Assembly: GCA_018827585.1 (NCBI GenBank)
Contig: JAHJXP010000016.1
Coordinates: 1-58,138, forward strand
DNA: 58,138 bases
From: Pseudomonadota bacterium
GTDB lineage: Bacteria > Desulfobacterota > Syntrophia > Syntrophales > UBA5619
Reading direction: 5' to 3'
Part shown: one piece after another, positions 1,593-16,500 of the stretch
Position numbering within the stretch: the first letter of the stretch is position 1
How the letters are laid out: each line of letters starts with the position of its first letter
Program-made: the position numbers and the translations under genes
Notes under the pieces: model-generated
What the model saw: the letters and a program-made list of their open reading frames with translations, nothing else
What the model was told of the DNA's origin: nothing
Databases searched by the model: none

Positions 1593-1594
1593 CC

Positions 1595-2605: not shown

Positions 2606-2741
2606 AATTTTTGGTTCTTTCGCAAAAAAGTAGAATATCAGCCAGTCAATCGATAGAAGTTCTTTAAAAACAGTTGCATAAAAAAGCACATCGGGTGCAA
2701 GCAACGGCGGGTAACTTATTTCAGCACGACCGCCCTTTCAA

Positions 2742-3869
2742 TTATATTTTCCAATCACGAACATTGCCAGGAAATGAGTATCTCTCCAGCACCGCCATGG
2801 CATCGGGCGCCAAACCTCGTATTTCCTTGCCGACCTCTCCGGAAAACTTCCTCAGAAAGTGATGAATCAAGAGCGGCAGGTCTCCCTTCCTATCCTTCAG
2901 AGGAGGAAGATTCACCGGAATAACGTTGATGCGGAAAAACAGATCTTCCCGGAAGGCGCCTTTTGCCACCATGGCCAGCAGGTTTATGTTCGTGGCCACC
3001 ACGAGGCGGATATCGATCGGAACAGGCCGGGTGTCGCCGATGGGGGTCAGCACCCGTTCCTGCAACACCCTGAGCAGTTTAGCCTGGGTGGCAAGGCTGA
3101 TATTGGAAATTTCGTCCAGAAAAAGGGTGCCCCCGTCAGCCACTTTAAAAAGCCCAGTCTTGCTGTGGACGGCCCCGGTGAAGGAGCCTTTTACGTGGCC
3201 GAACAGCTCGCTTTCCAACAGTGTTTCCGGGAGGGACGTGCAATCCACGGCCACGAAGGGATGGTCATGCCTGGGGCTGTTTTTGTGAACGGCGCGCGCC
3301 ACCAGCTCCTTGCCTGTCCCGCTTTCGCCGGTAATCAATACCGTACTGTCGGTGGGGGCCACCTGCATGATCCGGCGATAGACCTTCTGCATCTCGACGC
3401 TTTCGCCGACAAAGTCATCAAAACCATGGCCGGCGCTGAGTTTTTTCTTTGCGGAAAAACTCTCCATCGCCAATGTTTTATAGTCGACCGCCTTCCGCAC
3501 CTTGTCGATGATCAGCTCGGAAGTAAACGGCTTGGCAATGTAATCGAAAGCGCCGTTTTTCATGGCCTCCACAGCGGTATCTACGGTTGAATAGCCGGTG
3601 ATAATAACGACCGGCACCTCAGGTTGCAGTATCTTTATGGTTTTAAGGACCTCCATCCCGTCCATGCCCGGCATCTTCAGGTCCGTAATCACCACGTCGA
3701 AATCCTGTTCCTGGATTTTTTCTACGGCCGTCCGTCCGCTGGCCGAGGTGTCCACGTGATAGCCTTCGGCTGAAAGAATGCGGCGCATCCCCTCCCTGAT
3801 CACTTCCTCATCGTCAACCACGAGGAGATGATGCTTACCCTGATTTTTTTCTTGCTTGTCTATTTCCAT
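2742..3869 (-). CDS. sigma-54-dependent response regulator (REC + AAA+) without a DNA-binding HTH; last codons look frameshifted
   Basis: Receiver (LLVVDDEE..., DVVITDLKMPGMDG), Walker A GESGTGKE and a GSFTGA sigma-54 contact loop. The ORF ends ...PGNVRDWKI*. Skipping one base after CGT GA restores the canonical ...NVR-x-LENIIERAVVLK* with a stop at 2716-2718. No Fis-type HTH is encoded in any frame. Confidence 0.8.
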   Translation of the reverse strand: MEIDKQEKNQGKHHLLVVDDEEVIREGMRRILSAEGYHVDTSASGRTAVEKIQEQDFDVVITDLKMPGMDGMEVLKTIKILQPEVPVVIITGYSTVDTAVEAMKNGAFDYIAKPFTSELIIDKVRKAVDYKTLAMESFSAKKKLSAGHGFDDFVGESVEMQKVYRRIMQVAPTDSTVLITGESGTGKELVARAVHKNSPRHDHPFVAVDCTSLPETLLESELFGHVKGSFTGAVHSKTGLFKVADGGTLFLDEISNISLATQAKLLRVLQERVLTPIGDTRPVPIDIRLVVATNINLLAMVAKGAFREDLFFRINVIPVNLPPLKDRKGDLPLLIHHFLRKFSGEVGKEIRGLAPDAMAVLERYSFPGNVRDWKI

Positions 3870-4122
3870 AATTTGACCGCAGAAAAAACCGCTGTCGTCT
3901 TTTTCCCTGAGGAAGCCAAAAGCGCTTATCCGGTTGCGTTTCCCGCCATTTCTTCATTGCCTGACTATTCATCTGTTTTTTAAAAAGCACCTGCCCTTGG
4001 ATCGGTTGAGCATATGAAGATGGCGATTGAGTGTCAAGAAAAAATGGCGCAAGGCGCGTCGACAACATGTGCTGCGCGCACCGGCTTCTCGATTGTCGGA
4101 GATCTGTAAAATCATGATGTTT

Positions 4123-4138
4123 TGGCGCTTAACGTGCA
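4123..4138 (+). promoter_or_regulatory. candidate sigma-54 (-24/-12) promoter TGGCGC-N5-GTGCA upstream of the sensor kinase operon
   Basis: TGGCGCTTAACGTGCA has GG and GC at the consensus spacing of TGGCAC-N5-TTGCA. It lies about 210 nt upstream of the kinase ATG, and a MITE-like element sits in between. Confidence 0.5.
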
Positions 4139-4197
4139 AGAATTATATTGCAATTGCCCCGCACTGGATGATAAGAACAATACAGTCATGACACATT

Positions 4198-4339
4198 CGT
4201 AAAAAGTCGTCCTTACTGTCTCCCCGGCGACTTCCTGATCGAGGTCCGGGACAGGCCCCGCGGTCCAGAACATATTGAAATAACTGTATTACCATTTTAA
4301 CCGGAATGACGACAGGAGGCGAGAAAGCACTTTTTTACG
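4198..4339. repeat. MITE-like intergenic element, family B (terminal inverted repeats CGTAAAAAG ... CTTTTTTACG)
   Basis: About 140 nt bounded by inverted CGTAAAAA(A)G / CTTTTTTACG ends. The internal CCGGAATGA...GAGGC...CTTTTT block is shared with the copy at 5942-6054. Confidence 0.5.
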
Positions 4340-4348
4340 AGTTCAATT

Positions 4349-5929
4349 ATGAAATCTCCAAAGATGTTCGATAAAATCATTGGCATTGCCAATTCGATCG
4401 GCGTAAAGTTTTTTATGCTGCTGGTTGTCTTGCTGATTCTTTCCTTCGGAATTATTACATATGTCAACATCTATTTCATGACCGCCCTTTTCCGGGAAGA
4501 TGTCGTCCGCAATGCAGTCCAGGTAAGCAACGTCATCAAGCGGGCCACTTACAACAGCATGCTGGAAAATCGCCGGGATGATCTGACCAACACGATTCTT
4601 AGCATCGGTAAGGAAGAGGAATTTGAGGGCATACGGATTTATAACAAAATAGGGATTATTGCCTTCTCCGACCGACTTGAAGAGCTTGGCCAGATTGCCG
4701 ATAAAAAAGCGGAACAGTGTTATGTTTGTCACGCGGAAGAGCCGGCAAAGGGAGTTGTGCCCACCATTGACCGCACCCGGGCGCTGAAATCCCCGAAAGG
4801 ATACCGCATCTTGGGTCTGATTAACCCTATCGAGAATGAACCGGCATGTTATAATGCCGCCTGTCACGCCCACTCTCCCAAGGAAAAATTGCTCGGCATT
4901 CTGGACGTCAAGCTGTCCCTGGAAAAGGGAGACAAGAGAATTATCGAGACGAGAAACAAGATGATCATCTACTCCGTCATTCTGATATTGATAACCGCCT
5001 TGGTGAAGTGGTGCTTCACCCAGAAAATGATCCGCAGTCCCATAACAAAGCTCAACTTGGCCACCAGAGAAGTGGCCAACCTCAATCTTGACTATAGGGT
5101 CGATATAACTTCCAGGGATGAGCTGGGGGTTCTGGCGGATTCTTTTAATAAGATGACCGGGGGGCTGAAGGCGTCCGCCGAGGAACTCAGAAAAGCCCAA
5201 TCAAGATTGATATTGTCGGAAAAGATGGCCTCATTGGGGAAACTTTCGGCAATGGTGGCCCATGAAATCAACAACCCTCTTTCAGGGATTCTCTCCTATG
5301 CCAAGCTCTCCTCCAAATATTTAGGTCAGGAAAAAATAGATTCCGGCACCTTGGGGATTGTTGACAAAAATCTTCACATCATCAGCAAAGAGGCCAAAAG
5401 GTGTGGCGATATCGTTAAAAATCTGCTCCTCTTTACAAAAAGGAGCTCAGGGGATTTTAAGGCGGAGCACCTCAATGAGATTATCGATGCCAGTATGGGC
5501 ATCGTTGCGCATAGCGCCGAAATGAATGATTTAAAGCTTATAAAAGAACTGGACGAGGGAGATGACTGCGTTCATTGTGATCCGGGCGATATTCAGCAGG
5601 TGCTGGTTGCTTTGATTATCAATTCCATCGAGCACTCCAATCGGGGGGGGAAGATAATTGTCAGGACCGATTATCGAGGCGATAATGATCAGGCCCGGAT
5701 AATGGTAATAGATAACGGCAAAGGGATCCCCAAAGACGCTCTTCCTCATATATTTGAACCGTTCTTCTCCATGAAGAAGTCGGAAAAGAATATCGGCCTC
5801 GGCCTTTCCGTGGTTTATGGCATTATAAAACAGTACGGGGGAACAATAGATGTGGAGTCCAAGGATGAGGAGGGGACAAAATTTACCATTGCCTTGCCCC
5901 GACTGCCGGCTGTGAAAAGGGATGCATAA
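4349..5929 (+). CDS. sensor histidine kinase with a periplasmic c-type haem-binding domain, HAMP, HisKA and HATPase
   Basis: Two TM segments flank a periplasmic region carrying CYVCH (CxxCH) and CYNAACH (Cx4CH). HAMP follows, then the H-box SAMVAHEINNPL and ATPase boxes (IDNGKGIP, GLGLSVV). Confidence 0.85.
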   Translation: MKSPKMFDKIIGIANSIGVKFFMLLVVLLILSFGIITYVNIYFMTALFREDVVRNAVQVSNVIKRATYNSMLENRRDDLTNTILSIGKEEEFEGIRIYNKIGIIAFSDRLEELGQIADKKAEQCYVCHAEEPAKGVVPTIDRTRALKSPKGYRILGLINPIENEPACYNAACHAHSPKEKLLGILDVKLSLEKGDKRIIETRNKMIIYSVILILITALVKWCFTQKMIRSPITKLNLATREVANLNLDYRVDITSRDELGVLADSFNKMTGGLKASAEELRKAQSRLILSEKMASLGKLSAMVAHEINNPLSGILSYAKLSSKYLGQEKIDSGTLGIVDKNLHIISKEAKRCGDIVKNLLLFTKRSSGDFKAEHLNEIIDASMGIVAHSAEMNDLKLIKELDEGDDCVHCDPGDIQQVLVALIINSIEHSNRGGKIIVRTDYRGDNDQARIMVIDNGKGIPKDALPHIFEPFFSMKKSEKNIGLGLSVVYGIIKQYGGTIDVESKDEEGTKFTIALPRLPAVKRDA

Positions 5930-5941
5930 GAATGACTACCC

Positions 5942-6054
5942 CGTAAAAAAGTTGTCACACCGGTGAAAACCGGTGTCCAGTGTTTTTGTGACTATTTGAA
6001 TGGATTCTGGCTTTTGCCGGAATGATATAAACGAGGCATTCGGGGCTTTTTCCG
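5942..6054. repeat. MITE-like intergenic element, family B, second (shorter) copy
   Basis: Starts CGTAAAAAAGTTGTCACACCGGTGAAAACCGGTGTCC (internal hairpin) and ends CTTTTTCCG. It lies between the kinase stop and the downstream regulator start. Confidence 0.45.
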
Positions 6055-6090
6055 AATTCGTTAAAAAATAATGGATGAGGAATCATTGAG

Positions 6091-7434
6091 ATGAAACCGG
6101 AAGAAATAGGAATACTGATCGTTGATGACGAACCCTCGGTGAGAGATTCTCTTTATCAATGGTTCACGGTCGACGGCTATCGGGTGGATACCGCCGAGGA
6201 TGCTGCTACTGCCTTGAAGAAGCTTCAGGAAAAACCATGGGACATTATCCTGCTGGACATCAAGATGCCGGGAATGGATGGGATAGAACTCCAGAATCGC
6301 ATCAAGCAGATTGATAAGAACATAGTGACCATTATCATCACTGCTTATGCCACCGTGGATACCGCCATCCAGGCGCTGAAGGACGGGGCCTTCGACTACG
6401 TTACCAAACCCATCGATCCCGATGACTTGAGCAGGCTGATCAGAAATGCCGTAGAAAAAAGAAGGCTTGTTACGGAAAACATTCAACTGCGCCAACAGAT
6501 TGAAGAGCTTATGCTTCCCGATGAAGTGGTGGGAGAGAGTCCTGCCATAAAAAAGGTGATGGAGATGGTCAATACCGTCGCCAAAACCGATTCCACCGTG
6601 ATGATTCTGGGGGAAAGCGGAACCGGTAAAGAGCTCATCGCCCGGGCAATCCACAGCCGAAGTTCACGAAAATATTTCCCGATTATTACAATTAACTGCG
6701 GCGCCTACCCGGAAGGTTTGCTGGAAAGCGAGCTCTTCGGTCATGAAAAGGGGTCCTTTACCGGGGCCATATACCGAAGAAAGGGCAAGTTAGAGATGGC
6801 CGACAAGGGGACCCTTTTCCTGGACGAGATAGGCAATATCAGTGAAAAGATGCAGATGGACCTTCTTCGGGTCATTGAAACCAAGAAATTTACCAGGCTG
6901 GGAGGCGACAAAACCATCGATTGCGATTTTCGGGTCATCTCTGCTACCAACAAGGACCTTGAAAAAGCGGTAAAGGATGAAAGCTTCCGGGAAGATCTCT
7001 ATTACCGGTTGAATGTTTTTTCCATTGTATTGCCTCCTCTCCGGGAAAGGAGATCGGACATTCCTCTGATTGCCAGATATTTTCTAAATAAATACACTCA
7101 ATCAATGAATAAGAATGTGACCGACTTTTCCCCGCGGGCGATGGAGATGTTTACCGCATACGATTGGCCGGGAAATATCCGGGAGGTTAGAAATGTAGTC
7201 GAAAGGGCCATGGTCGTGGCAAAGGGAAACCAGATTCAAGCGGAAGAGCTGTCTTTTCCCTTTCCGTCTTTATCCAGCCCTTCCGGCGGAGAATCCCTGG
7301 ACGATGTGGAAAAAGATCAGATCGTGAAGATATTGAATAAAACCAAGGGGAATATCGCTCAGGCGGCTGACATCCTCAAGATCAGCCGGCTTACCCTTTA
7401 CAATAAAATCGAAAAATATCATCTCAAGAGATGA
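6091..7434 (+). CDS. sigma-54-dependent Fis-family response regulator (NtrC/AtoC type, full length)
   Basis: REC (ILIVDDEP, DIILLDIKMPGMDG), Walker A GESGTGKE, GSFTGA, and a C-terminal HTH (GNIAQAADILKISRLTLYNKIEKY). Confidence 0.9.
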   Translation: MKPEEIGILIVDDEPSVRDSLYQWFTVDGYRVDTAEDAATALKKLQEKPWDIILLDIKMPGMDGIELQNRIKQIDKNIVTIIITAYATVDTAIQALKDGAFDYVTKPIDPDDLSRLIRNAVEKRRLVTENIQLRQQIEELMLPDEVVGESPAIKKVMEMVNTVAKTDSTVMILGESGTGKELIARAIHSRSSRKYFPIITINCGAYPEGLLESELFGHEKGSFTGAIYRRKGKLEMADKGTLFLDEIGNISEKMQMDLLRVIETKKFTRLGGDKTIDCDFRVISATNKDLEKAVKDESFREDLYYRLNVFSIVLPPLRERRSDIPLIARYFLNKYTQSMNKNVTDFSPRAMEMFTAYDWPGNIREVRNVVERAMVVAKGNQIQAEELSFPFPSLSSPSGGESLDDVEKDQIVKILNKTKGNIAQAADILKISRLTLYNKIEKYHLKR

Positions 7435-7455
7435 TCTGATAAAATAGTATCTGTG

Positions 7456-8046
7456 ATGTCTTATATTTATATTGTGCCTATTGAACTGGAGGATCATTCT
7501 TGCCTTGAAAAGCTGGAGAGCTTTTTTTTTGAAACTTTCCATCTGAAGACCAGGAGAAGAGAGTTTAAGATCAATTTAAAGGAGGCTTTCGATCCGAACA
7601 GGGGTCAATACAACTCTTCCCTTATCCTCCGGCAATTAATCATGAAGCCCCCCCGGGACGCGGAAAAGATACTGGCAGTCCTGGATGTGGATCTTTTTAT
7701 TCCCATTCTTACTTTTGTTTTCGGCGAGGCCCAGCTTAAGGGAATAGGGGCGGTAGTTTCCACCCGCCGCCTTCATAACCGGTTCTACGGTTTGCCGGAA
7801 GACGCAGAGGTCACAACCGATCGCCTGTTGAAAGAGTCGGTGCACGAACTGGGACACACCTTTGGGCTGATCCACTGTTCACAGCCAAAATGCGTAATGA
7901 ACTCTTCTACCTATGTGGAGAATATCGATCTGAAACAGGCTGAGCTGTGTCCCTTGTGTCAAAAGAGCATAAAGATCGATAGAACTCGCACCGCCCACAA
8001 GGGATTCCGGTTTTCGTGGTGGGGTAAAAACAGTAGGGTGGGTTAG
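7456..8046 (+). CDS. amzA: archaemetzincin-type zinc metallopeptidase (peptidase M54)
   Basis: HELGHTFGLIHCSQPKCVM...CPLC matches the archaemetzincin HExxHxxGx3Cx4CxM...CxxC signature. The ATG at 7456 is preferred over the GTG at 7453. Confidence 0.8.
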   Translation: MSYIYIVPIELEDHSCLEKLESFFFETFHLKTRRREFKINLKEAFDPNRGQYNSSLILRQLIMKPPRDAEKILAVLDVDLFIPILTFVFGEAQLKGIGAVVSTRRLHNRFYGLPEDAEVTTDRLLKESVHELGHTFGLIHCSQPKCVMNSSTYVENIDLKQAELCPLCQKSIKIDRTRTAHKGFRFSWWGKNSRVG

Positions 8047-8103
8047 CGAAGCGCAACCCGCCGGCTATTTCGGTGCGTGACGGCCGAGGCCCACCGCACC
8101 CTA
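8034..8103. repeat. REP-like palindromic element between convergent genes (TAGGGTG ... CACCCTA ends)
   Basis: Terminal inverted TAGGGTG/CACCCTA plus internal hairpins GGGTT-N10-AACCC and GGTGCG-N16-CGCACC. The stop codons of both flanking genes (8044-8046 and 8101-8103) lie inside it. Confidence 0.45.
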
Positions 8104-8943
8104 TCCTTCATTGCGCCCGTGTCGGGCATGGAGGTTGGATAGCAATTTTCTGTAATTTTTGGATCTGCCGATAAAGAACTCTAAAATCTTGGTCTTCTGC
8201 CTGGAAGTGACGATACTGAGCACGTCCTGCAGGCAGCCGATCCTGACCCCCCCATCCTGCATCGTGGGGCCGACCATTTGGGGGTTGTTTTTCAGCATCG
8301 AGTCGGTCAGGGCGATTATCTCCTGTTCCTCCCTTTGATACCATGAGAGGGCTTTTCTTCCAAAAAGGAGATTTTTCAGGTCGCTTTCAAGATTTTCCGG
8401 TTTTATTGTGACCAGCCAGCCATCTCCTCGCGGATCGGCGATGATCAGTTCCGGCTCCTTTTTCAGGCGTGGATTTACCATCTGAATTGAACCGGAAAGC
8501 GGAGAAATAACGGGCAGGATATAATCTTCCTGGATAATATGTGCGCAGCATTCCCCCTGGCGGGCAAAGCTCCCTGCCTGGGGCAGGATAACAACCTTGA
8601 CGTTGAAAATGAGCCCGGTTAAAAGATCGTCCAGTCCCATCCTCACTATTTCCGGATTTTCCACTTTCACCCAGCAATGATCGGGGTGATAGAAGACGGA
8701 TCCGTTGATCCGGGCGGAGGAACCGCCATTTGGCGATCCCTCCGCCCAATCTCCTTCCGCCTCCTGAAAATCACCTTCCCGGCTTTTCTCATTTTTTATA
8801 GCCAGGTCAAAAGGACAGAACTCGCACTGAAAGTTTCTGTCGCACAGTTTGTAGGATATCAATCCGGTCGTCATCCAGACGCACTTTCGCTCTTCCTCAG
8901 GTATCAGGGGATAACTTTTATTTCTTGCACTCATTGAAGCCAT
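8101..8943 (-). CDS. GcvH-fold protein with an N-terminal Cys cluster and a C-terminal extension (no lipoyl-Lys)
   Basis: Central region (FYHPDHCWVKVENPEIVRMGLDDLL...PLSGSIQMVN...DPRGDGWLV) aligns to the glycine-cleavage H fold. The N-terminus carries C-x12-C-x5-C-x2-C. The lipoyl-Lys position reads IIQEDYILPVISPLSG. Confidence 0.7.
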   Translation of the reverse strand: MASMSARNKSYPLIPEEERKCVWMTTGLISYKLCDRNFQCEFCPFDLAIKNEKSREGDFQEAEGDWAEGSPNGGSSARINGSVFYHPDHCWVKVENPEIVRMGLDDLLTGLIFNVKVVILPQAGSFARQGECCAHIIQEDYILPVISPLSGSIQMVNPRLKKEPELIIADPRGDGWLVTIKPENLESDLKNLLFGRKALSWYQREEQEIIALTDSMLKNNPQMVGPTMQDGGVRIGCLQDVLSIVTSRQKTKILEFFIGRSKNYRKLLSNLHARHGRNEG

Positions 8944-8964
8944 TTTGCTCGCTGCCTTGACCTT

Positions 8965-9660
8965 TTAAGAAACCAGAAGAAATTCCCTTACTATCTCATC
9001 CCATCTTTCCCGATCTATGTTTTTTGCTATTCCGTCAACCGGCACACCGCCATCCTGGGATACGGCGCCAAGGTTGTAATTCATCCGCGCAAGCAGCTTT
9101 TCCCTTACCTCTTCCATCCATTTTCTGGCAAGCCCGCCCGACAATAAATTCTTTAGATTGGCCGAAACTCTCGGCGCCTGAACCTTCATCAGCCAGGACT
9201 GACCGTAAGGATCCTTGCCGATACTCTCCGGCGAATTCAACAGACTCTCATTTATATCCAGTATTTTCCCATCTACTGGCGAGAGCATGTCGATGGATTT
9301 TGAGCCCACCTGCAGGCTCCAGGCCTTTTCTCCCTGCGAGACCTGGGAGCCGACCTGCGGAAGTTTTATCGCATCGATCTTTCCCACCAGCTTTTGGGCA
9401 AAATCGTCGATCCCGACTCTTACCACATTGTCGCCCTCCGGCTTCGCCCAACTGTGTCCCTGATGAAAATACATTCCTTCCAGCGGGAGATGGAACCAAT
9501 CGCTGATGGCGGGAAAAACGTTCGCGTATTCCCGGTAAACCGCCACCGCTGGTCTGCTCAAAAACCTCCAGAAGTAGGCGAAGAACAGAAGACCGCTGAT
9601 CACCAGCAAATATTCAATGCCCTTGGTTGCGAAAATGTCAACATACGTGAAGCCATCCAC
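8965..9660 (-). CDS. membrane-anchored GcvH-fold protein (paralogue of 8101-8943)
   Basis: GTG start, one N-terminal TM (YLLVISGLLFFAYFWRFL), then HQGHSWAKPEGDNVVRVGIDDFAQ...LQVGSKSIDMLSPVDGKI...DPYGQSWLMKV. A Lys sits near the canonical lipoyl position. The C-terminal extension contains the same QDGGV motif as the paralogue. Confidence 0.7.
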   Translation of the reverse strand: MDGFTYVDIFATKGIEYLLVISGLLFFAYFWRFLSRPAVAVYREYANVFPAISDWFHLPLEGMYFHQGHSWAKPEGDNVVRVGIDDFAQKLVGKIDAIKLPQVGSQVSQGEKAWSLQVGSKSIDMLSPVDGKILDINESLLNSPESIGKDPYGQSWLMKVQAPRVSANLKNLLSGGLARKWMEEVREKLLARMNYNLGAVSQDGGVPVDGIAKNIDRERWDEIVREFLLVS

Positions 9661-9692
9661 CGTAAAACCTCCTTTCTTATCGGGAAAATGCC

Positions 9693-11024
9693 TTACTTTT
9701 TCTCTTTATCGATGGAGCTGCCGCCATCGGCCATGGTAAGCCCCAGTTGAAGACCGAGAGCAACAGCCCGCTCCACGCTTTCCTCTTCCTGTTCTTGCTC
9801 AATTGCCCATTGGGGCGGTTTTTTCAAGATGGGGACCCGGTTGACGATCCATATGAATACCCACACCATCGTGAACACAATTGCCAGGGTTATGACCACC
9901 TCCATCCAGGAGGGAATATATCTCTCACTCAACGGCAGATACCATTTGTAGGCAATGATGGAATAATCAACCCGGTTGATAATGACCCCGATCATGGTCA
10001 GGACCGCTGCAATTCGGATCGGAGCGGGGTTTCCGGACTTTACGCCCCAGCTGAAGAGAAAGCCGGGAATCAACAGGAGTCCGATGAGTTCGGTAAGATA
10101 CCAGTAGCCCATGCCGGTATTCAGGAGCGACCAGTGTTTGCCGTGAACCAATACCAGGATCTGCAGGAAGAAATAAACAAACATCGTAATTGCGCAGGCA
10201 TTCCCCAGATCTATAATGATATCATCCCACGACCTTCTATATTCTTCGTCAATCCTGTCCTTCTCAAAGACCCGGAAGCTTACCGTTCCAATGAATATCA
10301 CTACCGAGAGTCCCGCATAGATGCTGGAGACAAAGAAAAGCAACGGGATAAATTCCGTATACCACAGGGGATGGATCTTCCATTTGGCCATCAGGAACAG
10401 CGCCCCGAGGCCCGACTGGTGGAGCGTTGAAAGAGTAACCCCTGCTATCACAGCTCCCAGGGTAAGAGAAGCGAGGAACTTGCGGGCTTTCTTCAACCCA
10501 AGCCACTCCGCAAATGCGGGCGATATCTCGACAAGCTGGGCGAGCATGTAAAGCAGGAAATGCCAGGCGACCAGAAACAGCACGGAATTTACCCCAAATC
10601 TGTTTCCGATGAGCGGATTGGCTATATTCCACCAGCGACCAAGGTCGAGCAGGATTGCCCCGGCATAAAAAACGTAGGCAAGGAAGCCATTGAGGACCGC
10701 CATTCTCACAATGGAGTGATATTTTTCTCCCCGGAGCACGTAAACGATGAAGGCAGTCACATAGGCGCCTCCTGCAAAAGCGACCCCAACCATGACAATG
10801 AATCCGATCCATATTCCCCAAGGATATTCGCTGGAACTATGGACAACCGAGCCCAGTCCCATGAAAAACCGGTACAGAATGAGAACTGCGCCGAGCAGGA
10901 TGACCGAACCGGTAATCACATTGAAGGGGGTCAAGATCTTTCCTTTCGGCTTCAATTCGCTCCGCATAAAGACAAGAAAATCCTTAAGACTGCTTATTTG
11001 CACTGCTGTAGTTGTCCTGTTCAT
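9693..11024 (-). CDS. integral-membrane quinone-interacting subunit, NrfD/HybB (polysulfide-reductase NrfD) family
   Basis: Many hydrophobic segments, and HybB/DsrP-type motifs (EYPWGIWIGF..., LDLGRWWN). Its start overlaps the upstream stop (ATGA at 11021-11024). Confidence 0.85.
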   Translation of the reverse strand: MNRTTTAVQISSLKDFLVFMRSELKPKGKILTPFNVITGSVILLGAVLILYRFFMGLGSVVHSSSEYPWGIWIGFIVMVGVAFAGGAYVTAFIVYVLRGEKYHSIVRMAVLNGFLAYVFYAGAILLDLGRWWNIANPLIGNRFGVNSVLFLVAWHFLLYMLAQLVEISPAFAEWLGLKKARKFLASLTLGAVIAGVTLSTLHQSGLGALFLMAKWKIHPLWYTEFIPLLFFVSSIYAGLSVVIFIGTVSFRVFEKDRIDEEYRRSWDDIIIDLGNACAITMFVYFFLQILVLVHGKHWSLLNTGMGYWYLTELIGLLLIPGFLFSWGVKSGNPAPIRIAAVLTMIGVIINRVDYSIIAYKWYLPLSERYIPSWMEVVITLAIVFTMVWVFIWIVNRVPILKKPPQWAIEQEQEEESVERAVALGLQLGLTMADGGSSIDKEKK

Positions 11025-11908
11025 CGTTTCCCTCCCTCTTCGCTTCTCACTTTGTCTTTCCGTTTGGTTATGGCGCTTACTCCGCTTAAGAATGCAGGCC
11101 AGAGAAGAAGGATGACCGGAACGCTGTAGAGAAATCCTTTCGTGTACTCTGGATAAGCGGTTGTTCCCAAATCGGTCCGGAAGCCGATCTGTTCAAACGG
11201 AACCGATGAGAGGTAAAGGTATCCTGTGCCGCCCGCCTCATGTTCTCCATAAATGTGGGAGGCGTATTCTCCCGAATTCTTATAGATACGCCTGTTTGCT
11301 TCTTCAATAAGGTTTCTTCTGGCGCCGAAGGTCAGCGCCTCCGCCGGACAGGCTTCCACGCAGGCGGGCTTTTCTCCCTTCTGGAGTCTCTCCCAGCAGA
11401 GATTGCATTTCTGAAGTTTGGGGGCGGCACTGTGATGTTCGAACTTCGGGATGTCGAAGGGGCATGACACCATGCAATATCGGCAGCCCATGCAGTTGGT
11501 GTCCCAGGTCACCGGTCCTTCCTCCCTTTTTTCCATCGCCTTCACCGGACACGCCGCAACACAGCCCGGCTGATTGCAGTGCATGCACTGCTTCTTCGCG
11601 AAAATCTCGCCCTTTTCCGTCTTATAGCGATTGACCAGGGTCCATTGCTTCTCCGATGTATCCCGTACTTTTTCAAATGCCGATGCGTCGCCTACATCCG
11701 GGACCGGCAAATTATGCGCCTCGGCGCACGCCAGCTCGCAGCTTCGACATCCGACGCACCGCGTGGTGTCGACAAGGACCCCCATGAATTCCTTATTTGC
11801 GGCAACCCCTGCCGCCTCAAGTTTGCCCGGCAACGAGAAACACCCCGGAGCTGCCAGCGCGACTCCCGTTCCCAGACACTTTAGAAAAGTCCTTCTATCA
11901 ATTCCCAT
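11021..11908 (-). CDS. Tat-exported 4x[4Fe-4S] ferredoxin-type subunit, NrfC/HybA/DsrO family, with a C-terminal membrane anchor
   Basis: Twin-arginine signal (DRRTFLKCLGTGVALAAPG), four Cys clusters (CVGCRSCELAC, CMHCNQPGCVAACP, CMGCRYCMVSCP, CNLC...CVEACP), and a hydrophobic C-terminal helix. Confidence 0.85.
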   Translation of the reverse strand: MGIDRRTFLKCLGTGVALAAPGCFSLPGKLEAAGVAANKEFMGVLVDTTRCVGCRSCELACAEAHNLPVPDVGDASAFEKVRDTSEKQWTLVNRYKTEKGEIFAKKQCMHCNQPGCVAACPVKAMEKREEGPVTWDTNCMGCRYCMVSCPFDIPKFEHHSAAPKLQKCNLCWERLQKGEKPACVEACPAEALTFGARRNLIEEANRRIYKNSGEYASHIYGEHEAGGTGYLYLSSVPFEQIGFRTDLGTTAYPEYTKGFLYSVPVILLLWPAFLSGVSAITKRKDKVRSEEGGKR

Positions 11909-12071
11909 AATTATTCAGCTCCTCCCTTCTCCAATCGAATCTCCGCGATCGTCTCTCGCAAACCCCGGGGGGCTTGCCAGCCAAACATGATTTGTCGCTG
12001 TAACTTCCCCGCATGATCTTTCTTGAGGAGACCGGAGACAATGCGGGCATGCCGACCAGGTTAAGAGCGGC

Positions 12072-12278
12072 TCACTCTTTTTTCTCTTTATCAATGGAAT
12101 CGCCGCCATCGGCCATGGTCAGTCCCAGTTGCGGATTAAAGGCAACGGTCCGCTCTTTGCGGATTGCGCCAAACCCATGCCTACAGAAATAGACGAGGGA
12201 TGTCAGCGTTCCCGTAAGCCACAACAGGGGGATCGTCACCCCTAACACGCCGATAATAATTAAAATTGCGAGTTTCAT
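12072..12278 (-). CDS. 68-aa hydrophobic mini-protein whose C-terminal 18 aa repeat the tail of the NrfD/HybB-like subunit
   Basis: The ATG at 12278 is preceded by GAGGAGGAAAGGG. The N-terminus is hydrophobic (KLAILIIIGVLGVTIPLLWLTG). The tail QLGLTMADGGDSIDKEKK matches QLGLTMADGGSSIDKEKK at 9696-9749. Confidence 0.55.
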   Translation of the reverse strand: MKLAILIIIGVLGVTIPLLWLTGTLTSLVYFCRHGFGAIRKERTVAFNPQLGLTMADGGDSIDKEKKE

Positions 12279-12392
12279 AACCCTTTCCTCCTCTCTATTG
12301 AATCCATCCTCGCCGGACATCGCCACGGTTGTTCAATTCCTGTCATTACATCCGACCTGCCATCCCGGATCTTCTTTTTTGCCTTTTATTAG

Positions 12393-12408
12393 TCCAATAA
12401 CCATGCCA
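12393..12408 (-). promoter_or_regulatory. weak sigma-54-like -24/-12 element (TGGCAT-N5-TTGGA) facing the HybAB-like operon
   Basis: The reverse complement reads TGGCATGGTTATTGGA. Spacing is correct, but the conserved -12 GC is GG. It lies about 115 nt upstream of the mini-protein ATG. Confidence 0.25.
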
Positions 12409-12443
12409 AAGCGGAAAAGCCCGGATAATCTTCAGTCGGGACT

Positions 12444-12474
12444 TGTAAATACTGCATGATAGTAATAATTTACA
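12444..12474. promoter_or_regulatory. inverted repeat TGTAAAT-N17-ATTTACA (candidate regulator binding site)
   Basis: A perfect 7-bp inverted repeat in the AT-rich divergent intergenic region. The same half-site recurs at 12531-12586. Confidence 0.4.
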
Positions 12475-12530
12475 GGTATCAGTGAAAGATTGTCGGGATT
12501 TCTGGCACAGTGGCTGTCCCGCAAGAAGTG

Positions 12531-12586
12531 TTATAAATATTTACACATCCCTGTTAATAATTTTTACTGCCCGTGTAAATTTATAA
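12531..12586. promoter_or_regulatory. inverted repeat TTATAAATATTTACAC ... GTGTAAATTTATAA (candidate regulator binding site)
   Basis: A 14-16-bp imperfect inverted repeat sharing the TGTAAAT/ATTTACA half-site with 12444-12474. Confidence 0.4.
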
Positions 12587-12845
12587 AAAACAAACAATTA
12601 AGAGGATGCCGGGTGTTAAGAAAATGAACAATGTTTTTTATTATTAAGAACGAGATCTCCATCAGCAATTGTTCAGAGATCTCATAAGCACGTTTTTGTT
12701 GGCAATGAAAATCGCGATTGTATTAATTTATAAAAACTGGCATAAGGCGTCAGAGATATCTCCCCGTAAAAGGTCGCAGCGGCGGAGGGATAATTCAATG
12801 ATATCTGGCTTGATTGCGTTATGCCGTTAATGCAGAGGAGGAAGA

Positions 12846-13901
12846 ATGATGAGTTGGATGAAGTGGGTTCCGATTTTGCTCGCAGCAGTGCTCTTGTCCC
12901 CGCTCGCGGCGCCGGCGGCGGGTGCGGCGGCGAACCATTATTGTATAACCTGTCACGGTGAAAAGACCGTCATTAACAAGGGGGCGCACCTCTATATCGA
13001 TCCGGTGAAATATGAGCTGACGACGCATGCAAAAATCGGGTGCGTTGCCTGTCATGACAATGTAACGAAGCGTCATCCGGCGGACGGCGTCCGGCCGTCG
13101 CGGGCAAAATGCCAGGATTGTCACTCCTCTGTCTTTTCCGAATACCAGCAAAGCTCGCACAGCCAGTACGCCGGATGCACGGATTGCCATAAGCCTCATG
13201 CAACGAAGCCGCTGCTGGCGGTGTCCAGTCGCGACATCAACAGCCAGTGCGCCAAGTGTCACGAATATTCCCAAACGGTCAAAAGCCATTCCAAATGGCT
13301 GCCTCGGGCGGCGCTCCACATAGACGCCCTGCCGTGCATCACCTGCCATACGGGTTCGGAAAATTATTTCATCACCCTGTATATGGCGATAAAGGCATCG
13401 GGATCGCCTCTGGGCGGCTTCAATCTGGCCGATTTTGACGATTTGCGTCCGTTTTTATCGGCAGGGAAAAACGCTGAGACGATGATCGACAGCGACGGCG
13501 ATGGGGCCATATCGGTGAGCGAGTTGAAAAAATTCAATACAAACAGCCGGTACCGAAACATAATTCTCCTGGGGACCATGATGCCCGAGGTGGTAACGCA
13601 CAGTTACCAGATCCTGAATAACCGCTGGGACTGCACTTTCTGCCACGTCTCGGGGTCAAAGGCGCAGCAGATAAGCTACCTGGCGTTTCCCGGGCAGGAT
13701 GGCGCTTACGGCCGCATGGAAGTGGAAAAAGGCGCCATTCTGGACATCCTTTACGGGACCCCAGATTTCTATATGATCGGCTTTACGCGCAGCAAAATCT
13801 TGAGCATCATCGGGGGGCTGATCGCCGCCGCGGGACTTATGGTGCCCATTTTGCACGGTACGCTGCGCTTTCTCACCAGAAACAGAAGAAAGGAGCAATG
13901 A
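12846..13901 (+). CDS. membrane-anchored heptahaem c-type cytochrome (CbcA-like)
   Basis: RBS AGGAGG, a signal peptide, seven CxxCH motifs (CITCH, CVACH, CQDCH, CTDCH, CAKCH, CITCH, CTFCH), and a C-terminal TM helix (ILSIIGGLIAAAGLMVPILHG). Confidence 0.85.
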   Translation: MMSWMKWVPILLAAVLLSPLAAPAAGAAANHYCITCHGEKTVINKGAHLYIDPVKYELTTHAKIGCVACHDNVTKRHPADGVRPSRAKCQDCHSSVFSEYQQSSHSQYAGCTDCHKPHATKPLLAVSSRDINSQCAKCHEYSQTVKSHSKWLPRAALHIDALPCITCHTGSENYFITLYMAIKASGSPLGGFNLADFDDLRPFLSAGKNAETMIDSDGDGAISVSELKKFNTNSRYRNIILLGTMMPEVVTHSYQILNNRWDCTFCHVSGSKAQQISYLAFPGQDGAYGRMEVEKGAILDILYGTPDFYMIGFTRSKILSIIGGLIAAAGLMVPILHGTLRFLTRNRRKEQ

Positions 13902-13902
13902 C

Positions 13903-14559
13903 ATGTCGCCAGACACGACTATGGAAAAGATCTACCTTACTCCTACGCCGGTCAGAATATGGCACTGGCTCAACGCACTCGGCATCGTGACCCTTTGCGT
14001 CACGGGCCTGCAGATCAGATTTCCTGAATATGCCAACATCTTTGGGACTTACAAGGCGGCAATCAAATTGCACGATGTCGCCGGCGTAACGGTTTCGATC
14101 TCCTTTTTAATCTGGTTTTTTTACTACCTGTTCGTGGCCAGAAATCTGGTAAAGCTCTATGTCCCCAATCTGGACGATATCAGACAGGGGCTGTTCAAAC
14201 AGGCGTTTTTCTATTTCTTCGCCTACTTTCTGGGCCGGCAGAATCCCCATACCGCAACGCAGGAAAGCAAGTTCAACGCCATCCAAAAGCTGAGCTATCT
14301 GTTCATCATGTTTCTGTTTCTGCCGCTCGTGATCGTCAGCGGCCTGCTGCTGATGAATATTGAGCCTCTGCGGGGATGGATCGTCATGATCGGGGGGATC
14401 GCGTTCCTCGCCGACGCCCATTACCTGATTGCCTGCTCCTTTTTTGCCTTTCTGTGCGTCCACATCTATATGGCCACGCTTGGTCACACGCCTTTTTCCC
14501 ATTTCCGGCAGATGTGGACGGGTTGGGAAGAGGTGGAAAGCGGCGGAAGAAGCAAATAG
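13903..14559 (+). CDS. b-type cytochrome, PhsC/FdnI/hydrogenase cytochrome-b family (CbcB-like)
   Basis: Starts 1 nt after the upstream stop. The RIWHWLNALGIVTLCVTGLQI N-terminus and several TM helices with conserved His are typical of this dihaem cytochrome b family. Confidence 0.8.
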   Translation: MSPDTTMEKIYLTPTPVRIWHWLNALGIVTLCVTGLQIRFPEYANIFGTYKAAIKLHDVAGVTVSISFLIWFFYYLFVARNLVKLYVPNLDDIRQGLFKQAFFYFFAYFLGRQNPHTATQESKFNAIQKLSYLFIMFLFLPLVIVSGLLLMNIEPLRGWIVMIGGIAFLADAHYLIACSFFAFLCVHIYMATLGHTPFSHFRQMWTGWEEVESGGRSK

Positions 14560-14602
14560 AGGACAGTGATTCTGTTCCTTTTATTTTTCAGGAGGCGACA
14601 AC

Positions 14603-15376
14603 ATGAAGCAGCGGTGCGCGGTTTTCATCTTGATCGTGACGGTTTTAGCCTGCTCTTTTGCCTATGCTGTCGACATCAAGGATGTCACCATTAAAATACC
14701 CAATTTCGGTAAGGTGGTATTCAACCACAGCAAACACTTTCTCCAGGAGGGGATCAAGAACAACTGCAAGGCCTGCCACAATGCCATTTTCAACCTCAGG
14801 GCCAAGCCCCGTACCCATTTTACCATGGCGGACATGGAAAAGGGGAAATCCTGCGGCGCCTGTCACAACGGCAAACGCGCCTTCGGTCTCGCCGATTGCA
14901 TCAAATGCCATAAAGTCGCGGACGTGACTATGAAGGTCAAGGAGACTGGACCGGTGACCTTCAGTCATAAAAAGCATCTCGCCGCCGCCGATAAGTGCGC
15001 CGTCTGCCATCCCAAGCTTTACGACATGACTCCTAATAAGCCGGTTACCATGGCCCAGATGGAAAAAGGGAAGTCCTGCGGCGCCTGCCATAACGGTAAG
15101 AGCGCCTTCAAGGTCGATGAATGCACCAAGTGCCATCCCGTCAGAGATGTGGATTTTAAGGTAAAGGATGCCGGGGATGTCATGTTCAGCCACGAGCTGC
15201 ACACCGGCATCTACAAGTGCGGCGATTGCCATGTGAAGCTCTATCTCCCTTCCGCGAAGAACAAGAGGGTGACCAAGGCGGAGATGGAGGCGGCCAAATC
15301 GTGCGGCGCCTGCCATCTCGACGGCAAGGACGCCTTTACCGTGAAGGAGAATTGCGACCGCTGCCACAAGATGTAA
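14603..15376 (+). CDS. periplasmic nonahaem cytochrome made of three tandem c7-type trihaem modules
   Basis: Signal peptide and nine CxxCH motifs. A thrice-repeated ~80-aa module carries FxHxxH...CxxCH...M(E)KGKSCGACHNGK.AF...CxKCH. Confidence 0.85.
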   Translation: MKQRCAVFILIVTVLACSFAYAVDIKDVTIKIPNFGKVVFNHSKHFLQEGIKNNCKACHNAIFNLRAKPRTHFTMADMEKGKSCGACHNGKRAFGLADCIKCHKVADVTMKVKETGPVTFSHKKHLAAADKCAVCHPKLYDMTPNKPVTMAQMEKGKSCGACHNGKSAFKVDECTKCHPVRDVDFKVKDAGDVMFSHELHTGIYKCGDCHVKLYLPSAKNKRVTKAEMEAAKSCGACHLDGKDAFTVKENCDRCHKM

Positions 15377-15379
15377 TGA

Positions 15380-15430
15380 GGGACAGATACCTATTTACCC
15401 AGGGGAAATAGGTATCTGTCCCCATTTTCC
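15380..15430 (+). terminator. Rho-independent terminator of the cytochrome operon
   Basis: A perfect 17-bp stem GGGACAGATACCTATTT / AAATAGGTATCTGTCCC with a 9-nt loop, followed by CATTTTCC. It starts 4 nt after the stop codon. Confidence 0.8.
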
Positions 15431-15530
15431 AAGTGGCGTCTGTCTCGTAATAATATTTGACAAAGGGGATTTTATTGTTAACTTACGTGAAAATCACCGG
15501 ACCTGAAGAGGGTCCAACAAGGAGAGGAAA

Positions 15531-15848
15531 ATGTTTTCAGTATCTGAAAAAGCAAGTGATATGATTAAGGAATTCCTTAATAGTCGCACGGAGGCCCCTT
15601 CCATCCGGGTCCTGATGCAGGAGGGCGGCTGAGCGGGGCCCTCTCTGGGCATGGCTCTGGATGAGTCAACACAGGACGACGATGTATTCGAGGATCGGGG
15701 TGTCAACTTTTTAGTCGAAAAGTCGCTCTTTGCGAGGGTCAAGCCGATCGAGGTCGATTTCATCACCACCCCGCAGGGCGCCGGATTCAAGGTTACATCC
15801 AGCCTGAGTCAGGAAGGCGGCTGCGGCTCTTCCTGCAGCAGTTGCTGA
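15531..15848 (+). CDS. HesB/IscA-like selenoprotein (in-frame UGA at 15630-15632 read as Sec), 105 aa
   Basis: The ATG at 15531 has RBS GGAGAGG upstream. MFSVSEKASDMIKEFL...IRVLMQEGG-TGA-AGPSLGMALDE... continues in the same frame as track ORF 15651-15848. The TGA sits exactly where IscA/HesB proteins have the GGC(S/A)G cysteine. The C-terminus is Cys-rich (GGCGSSCSSC). Confidence 0.7.
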
Positions 15849-15972
15849 GATCATGCCCCGGAGGCTCCGGTCTCCCGGGGCGGAAGCCGCTCATCGGGAG
15901 CGGGTCCGAAGATCCCGGCTGAAACGGGCAGATTTTTTCCGGCCCGGCTTCCCAGGCCGGAAGACCGAGGAA

Positions 15973-16488
15973 TCAGGTCTTTCCCATCTTCTGCAGAGTC
16001 TCCCGAAAAACGTGATAAAAGGCGGCGTTATCGCCCACGCCCCGCTTGATGATCTTTCCCGCCTCGTCGATACTCTTGAGATTGAGGATGAGATTGACGC
16101 TCCGGTTGAAGGCGGCCATGTTGTCCATTGTCCGGTGCTGCCCGCTGACCAGGACGACGAAGATTTTCCTCCGTATTACCGCGGCCAGGTTTTCCAGATA
16201 AAGCAGGACGTCGTTCGCTTGCGGGTCCTCCGTGTCGAAGCGTTCGTTGAGAACCACGAGATCGTAAACATGGAACCGCATGTACCTCAGGGCTTCCTTG
16301 GCCGTGGCTGGTTCCGTAATCTGATAGTTCACCTCCCGGAGGGCGCCGCTGATCTTTTCCCGGACGGCCGGATCCGGTTCGCACACCAGGGCGGTTTCGC
16401 CCCCTTCTCCCACGAAGTCGAACGGCCGATCCGCGGCGTCGTAACCCTCCGCCGCGACTTCATTCAACAGGCTCTTCTCGTCTTCCAT
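15973..16488 (-). CDS. stand-alone receiver-like (pseudo-receiver) protein downstream of the pilT paralogues
   Basis: CheY-like pattern, but the phospho-acceptor position reads YDLVVLNERF (Asn instead of Asp) and the acidic pocket is VCEPD. The ATG is 12 nt after the upstream stop. Confidence 0.6.
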   Translation of the reverse strand: MEDEKSLLNEVAAEGYDAADRPFDFVGEGGETALVCEPDPAVREKISGALREVNYQITEPATAKEALRYMRFHVYDLVVLNERFDTEDPQANDVLLYLENLAAVIRRKIFVVLVSGQHRTMDNMAAFNRSVNLILNLKSIDEAGKIIKRGVGDNAAFYHVFRETLQKMGKT

Positions 16489-16500
16489 CACACGCCTCCC

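Follow-up and report, generated by a model that had tools for sequence, protein, structure and literature searches.

A conserved gene cassette combining an NrfC/NrfD-type membrane module, two GcvH-fold proteins lacking the lipoyl lysine, a sigma-54 two-component system and an archaemetzincin

We analyzed a 58,138-nt stretch of DNA (the window) from contig JAHJXP010000016.1 of a Syntrophales genome (assembly GCA_018827585.1), in which five co-directional genes encode a membrane mini-protein, a Tat-exported iron-sulfur (FeS) protein, an NrfD-type membrane subunit and two GcvH-fold proteins, one membrane-anchored (GcvHtm) and one Cys-rich (GcvHcys). The analysis showed that these genes, apart from that of the mini-protein, which is a Syntrophales addition, belong to a conserved seven-gene cassette found in two phyla. 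The cassette encodes the NrfC-type protein, the NrfD-type protein, the two GcvH-fold proteins, a sensor kinase, a sigma-54-dependent response regulator and an archaemetzincin. We consider that the five genes most likely act in redox signalling and not as a lipoyl carrier. In the fuller form of this proposal, which we judge to be evenly balanced between right and wrong, the cassette is a cytochrome c:quinone module coupled via GcvH-fold adaptors to a self-regulating two-component system that probably also controls CbcAB-like cytochromes. Signalling is favoured over a new carrier chemistry because the domains in question also occur fused to kinase and receiver domains, because the kinase, the regulator and the archaemetzincin form a conserved unit with these genes, and because cytochrome partners are available.

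An earlier reading of the window, made from the letters alone (the sequence-only reading), had described the five genes as an operon. All five open reading frames (ORFs) were confirmed on the minus strand with gaps of 163, -4, 32 and 21 nt (Table 1); the -4 gap is an ATGA overlap between the FeS gene and the NrfD-type gene, and a conserved AGGAGG precedes the ATG of the mini-protein. Pfam searches gave Fer4_11 (E 7e-21), NrfD (E 6.5e-11) and GCV_H (E 2.5e-26 for GcvHtm and 1.1e-17 for GcvHcys) on the other four products. The mini-protein had no Pfam or NCBIfam family match, and consists of one N-terminal transmembrane (TM) helix (residues 3-21) and a cytoplasmic tail ending NPQLGLTMADGGDSIDKEKKE. 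The FeS protein carries the proposed features, namely a Tat motif (DRRTFLK), four ferredoxin-type groups with 16 Cys in all, and a hydrophobic helix at the C-terminus (263-281). For the NrfD-type protein, hydropathy analysis predicted 10 TM segments, and the distribution of Lys and Arg suggests that both ends are cytoplasmic; the tail at its C-terminus reads QLGLTMADGGSSIDKEKK. In agreement with this, a review places the C-terminus on the N-side in NrfD-like subunits with 10 TM segments (PMC8076601). As that reading also stated, the operon contains no hydrogenase, molybdopterin or cytochrome gene (it holds just the five genes), hypF and hypE lie nearby (21-2605), and multihaem cytochromes are encoded divergently. 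Cytochrome partners do exist, next door in the window and, at other loci described below, inside the operon (L029) or fused to the NrfD-type protein (Acidobacteriota). The five-gene operon is real, but the conserved unit is larger and includes the kinase, sigma-54 regulator and archaemetzincin genes at 4349-8046, which that reading had not connected with the operon.

Homologous loci were collected by searching an alignment of GcvHcys against one genome per GTDB species, which gave 21 loci, and further loci came from a metagenome scan and contig look-ups. The window proteins were then mapped onto the loci by tblastn. One of the two peptide patterns in the metagenome scan matched ordinary GcvH, and the informative loci from it are L026-L029 and L050 only. 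The GcvH-like pair was syntenic with the NrfC/NrfD-type pair at about 20 loci, in Syntrophales, in Acidobacteriota and in a third lineage (29-62% identity). Because the pair persists across these lineages, the linkage proposed by the sequence-only reading holds. In Syntrophales-type loci (L002-L006, L009, L011, L026, L107 and L108), whose contigs sometimes end within the kinase-regulator unit, the order is mini-protein, HmcB, HmcC, GcvHtm, GcvHcys (HmcB and HmcC being the best curated matches of the FeS and NrfD-type proteins), and the archaemetzincin, sigma-54 regulator and kinase genes are convergent, as in the window. The third-lineage locus, L029, has the same architecture with a four-haem cytochrome c gene directly 5' of HmcB and an extra anchored GcvH-like gene; the order HmcB-HmcC-GcvHtm-GcvHcys is kept in three lineages. 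Acidobacterial cassettes (L022, L023, L024 and L106; partial in L015 and L028) consist of seven co-directional genes in the order GcvHcys, GcvHtm, NrfC-type, NrfD-type fused to a cytochrome c7 domain, HAMP kinase, sigma-54 regulator, archaemetzincin. Reduced versions also occur: L014 has the mini-protein and the GcvH pair only, and L016 has the pair, the regulator and the protease and no NrfC/NrfD. A literature search combining GcvH with NrfD, HmcC, HybB or archaemetzincin found no paper describing the cassette, and a review of NrfD proteins describes no cluster of the GcvH-like plus NrfC/NrfD kind (PMC8076601). In other words, each part of the cassette is of a known kind (NrfCD module, sigma-54 two-component system, H-protein fold, metzincin), and it is their combination for which we found no description. 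On the 634-kb contig of L022, the flanks of the cassette (17774-18696 and 2299-7779) carry further respiratory genes, encoding a CbcL-like fusion of multihaem cytochrome c and Ni_hydr_CYTB cytochrome b, a Rieske protein, a cytochrome b C-terminal domain protein and three multihaem cytochromes.

AlphaFold2 gave both GcvH-like proteins a confident H-protein fold. The best Foldseek match of GcvHtm was the H-protein 1onl (TM-score 0.91), with about 0.9 also to 3ab9 and root-mean-square deviations of 1.4-1.6 Å to solved H-proteins; the GcvH-L structure 5a35 was matched as well. A PDB sequence search with GcvHcys returned H-proteins only. GcvHtm is predicted to consist of an N-terminal TM helix, the GcvH fold, a long helix, a disordered loop (LGAVSQDGGV) and a C-terminal helix (pLDDT, or predicted local distance difference test score, 76; below 50 in loop 196-205), and the charges flanking the TM helix place the GcvH fold in the cytoplasm. 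GcvHcys begins with a four-Cys (C4) domain, followed by the GcvH fold, a long helix, a disordered loop (NPQMVGPTMQDGGV) and C-terminal helices (above 90 in the GcvH core; below 50 at the N-terminus and in loop 223-234). After the GcvH fold, the layout common to both is a long helix, a low-confidence DGG loop and then one to three helices.

The lipoyl site itself is not kept in either protein. The Lys that the sequence-only reading had noticed near this site in GcvHtm is K121, in LQVGSKSIDMLSPVDG, and lies one residue past the column of the E. coli lipoyl Lys, which is occupied by Ser; GcvHcys was rightly said to lack the lipoyl Lys: the column is Asp here, and Ala or a comparable residue in the acidobacterial proteins. 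Residues seen in the canonical column include Ser, Asp, Asn and Gln. Among 58 GcvHtm orthologues, the next position is Lys in 23 of the 24 that are of Syntrophales type, whereas none of the 34 of the Acidobacteria type has it, 25 having Arg and 9 His. With 98.5 and 65.1 bits for GcvHtm and GcvHcys, both score under the NCBIfam cut-off for GcvH (117 bits), and both are also below the NCBIfam cut-offs of not_gcvH and GcvH_rel_desulf. Given that the lipoyl column is not Lys, that the displaced Lys becomes Arg or His, and that the scores are below the cut-offs, no lipoate attachment site is conserved; to judge from the alignment, what the family conserves is a basic residue near the hairpin tip. 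The gene neighbourhood agrees with the alignment in containing no lipoate ligase, LipS, Hdr, DsrE, TusA, GcvT or GcvP gene within about 8 kb of the operon, and no gene of the sHdr-LbpA system (sHdr, dedicated lipoate ligase, DsrE/TusA) between positions 1 and 16 kb of the window. Thus, like GcvH, LbpA and the GcvH-L of the SirTM operon, the two proteins keep the barrel-sandwich fold, the N-terminal HxW motif and the (S/A)P(V/L)xG hairpin. Unlike them, they have no lipoyl Lys, no ligase and no partner enzymes, and they carry an extra N-terminal TM or C4 domain and a C-terminal extension of about 50-80 amino acids (aa) with the DGG loop. Both genes are now annotated as 'glycine cleavage system protein H', which misleads metabolic reconstruction of metagenome-assembled genomes of Syntrophales and Acidobacteriota. 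Pfam has precomputed PF28260.1, possibly a domain of HmcD-like or anchor type, on the N-terminus of many GcvHtm orthologues (among P0121-P0240).

The C4 domain provides a second line of evidence. The C-x12-C-x5-C-x2-C cluster that had been seen in GcvHcys is present (C21, C34, C40 and C43) and is invariant in homologues. AlphaFold2 gave no confident model of this segment, and no model in the Pfam copy searched matched it. Using the first 64 residues of GcvHcys as a query (E<=1e-3), we obtained matches to 747 cluster representatives and classified the architectures of 149 of the best 150. Among these 149 of the 747, one to four C4 copies were followed by a GcvH-like domain in 93 and a REC domain was followed by two C4 copies in 10; one protein combined C4, a GcvH-like domain and a kinase core, 44 were short or had no other recognised domain, and one was a eukaryotic zinc-finger false positive. 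C4 is therefore a widespread four-Cys domain that pairs with GcvH-like and receiver domains. The kinase fusion is the intact 505-aa protein P0366 (C4, GCV_H, HisKA and HATPase_c). A second C4-GcvH-kinase fusion (L025/P0072) adjoins GcvHtm and a convergent archaemetzincin. At L016, GcvHtm is in frame with HisKA and HATPase, and the regulator and archaemetzincin genes come next. Comparison with close relatives showed that this fusion arose by a deletion in which NrfC, NrfD and the kinase's sensor half were lost. Next to it, GcvHcys is interrupted by an in-frame stop that falls after the Cys domain and before the GcvH fold; we therefore give the fusion little weight.

Some other members of this collection are recorded here. 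The fusion region of L016 spans 9941-12245 in a Blastocatellia genome assembled from a metagenome. Response regulators with REC and two C4 copies include P0387, P0392, P0405, P0435, P0449, P0451, P0463 and P0474, and three or four tandem C4 copies are found in P0364 and P0365. P0385 and P0395, which have two C4 copies and a GcvH-like domain, carry a further Cys-containing N-terminal segment (MKCPFLEE..V..CKA) and keep ADGG in the C-terminal extension, indicating that the DGG loop belongs to a wider family.

The convergent unit adds a third line. Its kinase has two periplasmic c-haem motifs, CYVCH (residue 124) and CYNAACH (residue 167), which are kept in both Syntrophales and Acidobacteriota, and the Pfam domains of the kinase and the regulator are those of an NtrC-type sigma-54 two-component system. 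The regulator is 85-92% identical across the Syntrophales loci, and 62% and 57% identical in L029 and L016, respectively. The archaemetzincin scored 165.3 bits against NF033823 (cut-off 145) and has the motif HELGHTFGLIHC-x4-C-x-M-x16-C-x2-C. Like AmzA, AMZ1 and AMZ2, it possesses the extended HEXXHXXGXXHCX4CXM...CXXC motif; unlike them, it has a spacer of X16 and not X17, and it is a bacterial member inside a sigma-54 two-component unit. It adjoins the regulator wherever the contig reaches that far, except in L014. The physiological role and natural substrates are not known for any archaemetzincin (PMC3427221), and the cassette offers the first consistent genomic context for the bacterial ones.

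On the other side of the operon, the divergent cytochrome genes (12846-15376) probably encode redox partners or are regulatory targets of the cassette. The cassette has CbcAB-like genes next to it in the window and in L004, L005, L009, L021, L026 and L108. This arrangement recalls Geobacter, in which the cbcBA operon is activated at low redox potential by the divergent sigma-54 regulator BccR (GSU0598), in a study that names the regulator but not the signal (bioRxiv 10.1101/2021.04.15.440034), and in which GSU0599, adjoining bccR, is reported to encode a two-component protein with two c-haem motifs (PMC8396549, PMC3831638). The two systems share a sigma-54 response regulator beside a kinase with two c-haem motifs, an adjacent operon for a cytochrome c with seven haems and a C-terminal anchor and for a dihaem cytochrome b of the PhsC-like kind, and the involvement of sigma-54 promoters. 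They differ in that not every cassette has CbcAB nearby (L107 does not), and the published accounts that we found of BccR and CbcBA do not mention GcvH-like, NrfC/NrfD or archaemetzincin genes. The window also encodes a second sigma-54-type response regulator (2742-3869, minus strand), with REC and AAA+ domains, that stops right after the AAA+ lid and is without HTH_8; its orthologues (78-86% identity) occur near the cassette in L004, L006 and L026, and it recalls GSU0596, an extra RpoN-dependent response regulator of the Geobacter cbcBA operon.

Promoter-like elements were then compared among orthologous loci. A generic scan of the window with TGGCAC-N5-TTGC gave 28 matches as against 47 in shuffles, so that such elements were informative only after this comparison. 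In eight of nine Syntrophales-type sequences, TTTGGCAT-N5-TTGG occurs 60-240 nt 5' of the mini-protein gene, and L005 has TGGCAC-N5-TTGT. Ahead of this sigma-54-like element, the Syntrophales-type loci have a box, GTGTAAATATTTATAACAC; in the window, three boxes of the type GTGTAAAT[A/T]TTATAA were found, of which that at 12531-12546 is conserved in orthologous loci. 5' of GcvHcys, the first gene of their cassette, five acidobacterial loci show GG-N10-GC elements of canonical form as well as a TGTTGAGAnTCTCAACA palindrome. Since the first gene of the cassette has sigma-54-type elements ahead of it in both phyla, together with conserved boxes or palindromes, the cassette looks as if it were regulated through its own sigma-54 activator. 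A scan for sigma-70 promoters and terminators gave no more than chance. The acidobacterial palindrome (L015, L016, L022, L023 and L024) is near-perfect, TGTTGAGA-n-TCTCAACA, and lies about 100-250 nt 5' of GcvHcys, with two copies in L015; it is followed by a canonical sigma-54 promoter (TGGAAC or TGGCAT, N5, TTGC).

The mechanism that we propose would run as follows. The Tat-exported FeS protein and the NrfD-type subunit would form an Nhc/Hmc-type module on the periplasmic side, exchanging electrons between c-type cytochromes and the menaquinone pool. GcvHtm would be anchored beside this module by an HmcD-like helix, with its lipoate-free GcvH fold facing the cytoplasm, and GcvHcys would be a soluble paralogue with a putative metal-binding four-Cys domain. 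Both would serve as signalling adaptors and not as cofactor carriers. What they would pass on to the kinase, on its cytoplasmic side, is either the state of the module or a redox cue that the Cys domain senses in the cytoplasm, while the kinase's own periplasmic haems may read the periplasmic redox poise. The phosphorylated sigma-54 regulator would then activate the cassette's own promoter, and probably also the cbcAB-like operon. The occurrence of the GcvH pair without NrfC/NrfD (L014 and L016) also speaks for signalling. Membrane complexes that take part in sensing are represented by the cbb3 oxidase with PrrBA and by BceAB with BceS. As in those systems, a kinase-regulator pair is encoded along with a respiratory or transport complex believed to signal its own activity to the kinase, and the system is self-regulating; unlike them, the coupling proposed here would go through dedicated GcvH-fold adaptors, with a metalloprotease in addition.

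Several points weigh against this proposal. The protein-protein contacts within the complex are ones that we infer, the kinase, with a haem sensor domain of its own, does not need accessory input, and a role as structural subunits would explain just as well why the GcvH-fold genes share an operon with HmcB and HmcC. The anchor helix matches HmcD only below the cut-off, and the acidobacterial version does not show this match. Among the fusions, that of L025 is frameshifted in its assembly (P0366 being intact), and L016 may be a decaying locus or a streamlined variant. The likeness to BccR is one of position and kinase haem motifs, not of sequence comparison. The -12 element of the Syntrophales promoters is atypical (TTGG), and across five loci no conserved GG-N10-GC sigma-54 element was found 5' of the cbcA-like gene, so that we do not claim that operon for the regulon on sequence grounds. 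Finally, in L029 the DGG motif is relaxed to D-A/S-G.

A stronger version of the signalling proposal makes the lipoate-less GcvH-fold proteins and the undescribed four-Cys domain new two-component transducers, passing information on flux through NrfCD to the dihaem kinase and the BccR-like regulator, with the archaemetzincin as a signalling protease acting on the DGG motif. We hold this version only tentatively and regard it as rather doubtful. If it were true, anaerobes would have a dedicated respiratory redox-potential sensor that switches on low-potential cytochromes such as CbcAB, and the archaemetzincin family would gain its first physiological role. For the question of how anaerobes that reduce metals or live syntrophically sense redox potential and change over between inner-membrane electron routes, the cassette offers testable candidates for a sensing device, as a BccR-like regulator, a dihaem kinase, a quinone/cytochrome module and two putative adaptors are found in one unit, in which the H-protein fold of glycine cleavage is reused without its cofactor.

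The alternative that survives best is a purely respiratory complex, which we consider unlikely. In it, HmcB, HmcC, GcvHtm (as an HmcD/NhcD-type subunit) and GcvHcys (as a metal-cluster subunit) would make up a new Nhc/Hmc-like cytochrome c:quinone oxidoreductase with structural or gating GcvH folds, whereas the two-component system would control expression only and the archaemetzincin would mature or turn over the complex. The sequence-only reading had assigned the FeS and NrfD-type proteins to the HybA/HybB type. An NrfC/NrfD-like module is indeed present, but HmcB and HmcC outscore HybA and HybB, and all four scores are below the curated NCBIfam cut-offs: the FeS protein scored 339.6 bits against NF045715 HmcB (cut-off 420) and 233 bits against HybA (cut-off 263), and the NrfD-type protein 367.9 bits against NF045714 HmcC (cut-off 550) and 235 bits against HybB (cut-off 450). 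Residues 10-35 of GcvHtm match HmcD (NF045712) weakly (E 6e-5; 22.9 bits, cut-off 34), and the acidobacterial anchors differ in sequence. No HmcA 16-haem cytochrome, HmcE cytochrome b or HmcF CCG-type FeS gene is found in the operon, and between positions 1 and 16 kb of the window there is no structural NiFe hydrogenase gene (hybO or hybC type), just hypF and hypE. We rejected membership in Hmc, Hyd-2, Dsr, Qrc, Ttr and Nrf, since all curated scores fall below their cut-offs and the defining partners are absent; the earlier view that the gene combination lies outside every named respiratory complex is thus borne out.

The cassette resembles Hmc and Nhc in its Tat-exported 4x[4Fe-4S] subunit and 10-helix NrfD-type subunit as best curated matches, in what may be a small single-helix partner (the weak HmcD match), in a multihaem cytochrome c as the likely periplasmic partner, and in having no catalytic molybdo- or NiFe subunit. 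It differs from them in scoring under the equivalog cut-offs, in having no HmcA/NhcA, HmcE or HmcF gene in the operon, in the cytoplasmic GcvH fold borne by its HmcD-like helix, and in the additional C4-bearing GcvH-fold protein, kinase, sigma-54 regulator and archaemetzincin of the conserved unit. Nhc itself combines a nine-haem NhcA with NhcB/C/D; a nine-haem protein is also encoded here, though in the divergent operon and with three c7 domains, and it may or may not be a counterpart of NhcA. The tight co-operonic spacing with its ATGA overlap, the order of HmcB, HmcC and the GcvH pair kept in three lineages, the HmcD match of the anchor helix and a cytochrome partner that is always available (in the L029 operon, in the acidobacterial NrfD fusion, or adjacent in the window) all fit a respiratory complex, and the Desulfovibrio hmc operon is also followed by regulator genes. 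However, NrfD-type subunits carry no redox cofactors (PMC8076601) and the operon has no cytochrome b, so that electrons cannot readily reach the cytoplasmic Cys domain; this speaks against a complex that, like Hmc, transfers electrons across the membrane. A respiratory complex is further disfavoured by the GcvH pairs that occur without NrfC/NrfD (L014 and L016), by the fusions of GcvH-like domains to kinase cores and by the C4 domain in receiver-domain proteins.

The DGG motif allows another alternative. The sequence-only reading had described QDGGV as a motif of the C-terminal extensions of the two GcvH-fold proteins. It is present there and invariant in homologues, but it is not confined to them, as it also lies on the tails of the mini-protein and the NrfD-type protein. 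These two tails are encoded by copies of a 77-nt direct repeat (Table 1) that gives both proteins near-identical ends, ...QLGLTMADGG(S/D)SIDKEKK, resembling the loops of GcvHcys (NNPQMVGPTMQDGGV) and GcvHtm (NLGAVSQDGGV). The loop consensus is NPQxxGxTMxDGG, and when the whole window was translated in all six frames, the pattern G-x-[TV]-[MS]-x-D-G-G was confined to these four proteins. Every Syntrophales-type mini-protein examined carries a DGG tail, as do about half of the HmcC orthologues; in acidobacterial cassettes, the motif is on the two GcvH-like proteins only and the tail copies are absent. Neither AlphaFold2 model gives the motif loop a confident structure; it is disordered in both, as expected of a linear docking motif. 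Within the signalling proposal, the loop and its copies on the membrane tails would give the four proteins the same site for docking or cleavage, with the archaemetzincin as the likeliest partner, and NPQLGLTMADGGDSIDKEKK and NNPQMVGPTMQDGGVRIG are candidate target peptides.

The same data could mean instead that the DGG-motif proteins are chiefly archaemetzincin substrates, with cleavage controlling their stability or membrane release, the GcvH fold acting as a scaffold, and the kinase and regulator being independent. We find this improbable. It would account for an archaemetzincin in the cassette of every phylum, for the motif in disordered, accessible loops or tails and for a 77-nt duplication that copied it onto two further membrane proteins, and it would supply substrates to a family whose natural ones are unknown (PMC3427221); however, Acidobacteriota do without the tail copies, L029 keeps the protease with a relaxed motif, and the kinase and receiver fusions are left unexplained. 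As for the suggestion of the sequence-only reading that the GcvH-fold proteins could be lipoyl or swinging-arm carriers, which would make them shuttles, comparable to LbpA of sHdr, for reducing equivalents or sulfur passing between the quinone-linked module and the metabolism of the cytoplasm, the genuine GcvH fold (TM-score about 0.9) and the Lys beside the lipoyl position in most Syntrophales-type GcvHtm sequences speak for it, but we rejected it as very improbable, because a one-position shift of the target Lys in the lipoyl hairpin abolishes lipoylation, that Lys is not conserved across phyla, GcvHcys has Asp or Ala in the lipoyl column, the family scores are sub-threshold, and lipoate and partner genes are absent nearby.

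Table 1. Positions of the cassette genes, the divergent cytochrome genes and associated sequence elements in the window
Feature	Positions	Strand	Remarks
Sensor histidine kinase	4349-5929	+	TM, periplasmic domain, TM, HAMP, HisKA, HATPase_c (Pfam)
Sigma-54-dependent response regulator	6091-7434	+	REC, AAA+, HTH_8 (Pfam, NCBIfam); BccR-like by position
Archaemetzincin (Peptidase_M54)	7453-8046	+	convergent with GcvHcys; last gene of the kinase-regulator unit
GcvHcys, Cys-rich GcvH-like protein	8101-8943	-	280 aa
C4 motif coding stretch, CxWMxxGxxxYKLCDRxxxCxxC(PFD)	8815-8883	-	mobile domain
GcvHtm, anchored GcvH-like protein	8965-9660	-	231 aa
HmcC/NhcC/HybB-like NrfD-family membrane subunit	9693-11024	-	443 aa
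77-nt direct repeat, first copy	9697-9773	-	encodes HmcC-like tail with DGG motif; 81% identity to other copy
HmcB/HybA-like periplasmic 4x[4Fe-4S] protein	11021-11908	-	295 aa
Mini-protein	12072-12278	-	68 aa from ATG; first gene of the operon
77-nt direct repeat, second copy	12079-12155	-	encodes mini-protein tail; repeat search
Sigma-54-like -24/-12 element, TGGCATGGTTATTGG	12394-12408	-	atypical -12; about 115 nt 5' of mini-protein start
Conserved GTGTAAATATTTATAA(CAC) box	12531-12546	-	5' of sigma-54-like element; candidate activator site
Related AT-rich boxes	12573-12589, 12720-12736	+	divergent intergenic region; candidate activator sites
CbcA-like seven-haem cytochrome c	12846-13901	+	C-terminal anchor; haem motif count
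CbcB/PhsC-like cytochrome b	13903-14559	+	NCBIfam, Pfam
Nine-haem protein	14603-15376	+	three c7 domains; haem motif count, Pfam

The base composition of the window is not uniform. The G+C content is 0.47-0.53 in positions 1-16000, which hold the hyp genes, the kinase, the cassette and the cytochromes, and 0.58-0.67 in positions 16000-48000, which hold housekeeping genes such as two pilT genes, dxs, ispH and metG. This step, together with the presence of the cassette in two phyla, hints at horizontal acquisition, or possibly at a chimeric assembly. At 15853-16671 on the plus strand, 3' of the nine-haem cytochrome gene, a 272-aa ORF without a Pfam or NCBIfam match is kept in the same position in L004, L005 and L009 (36-46% identity).

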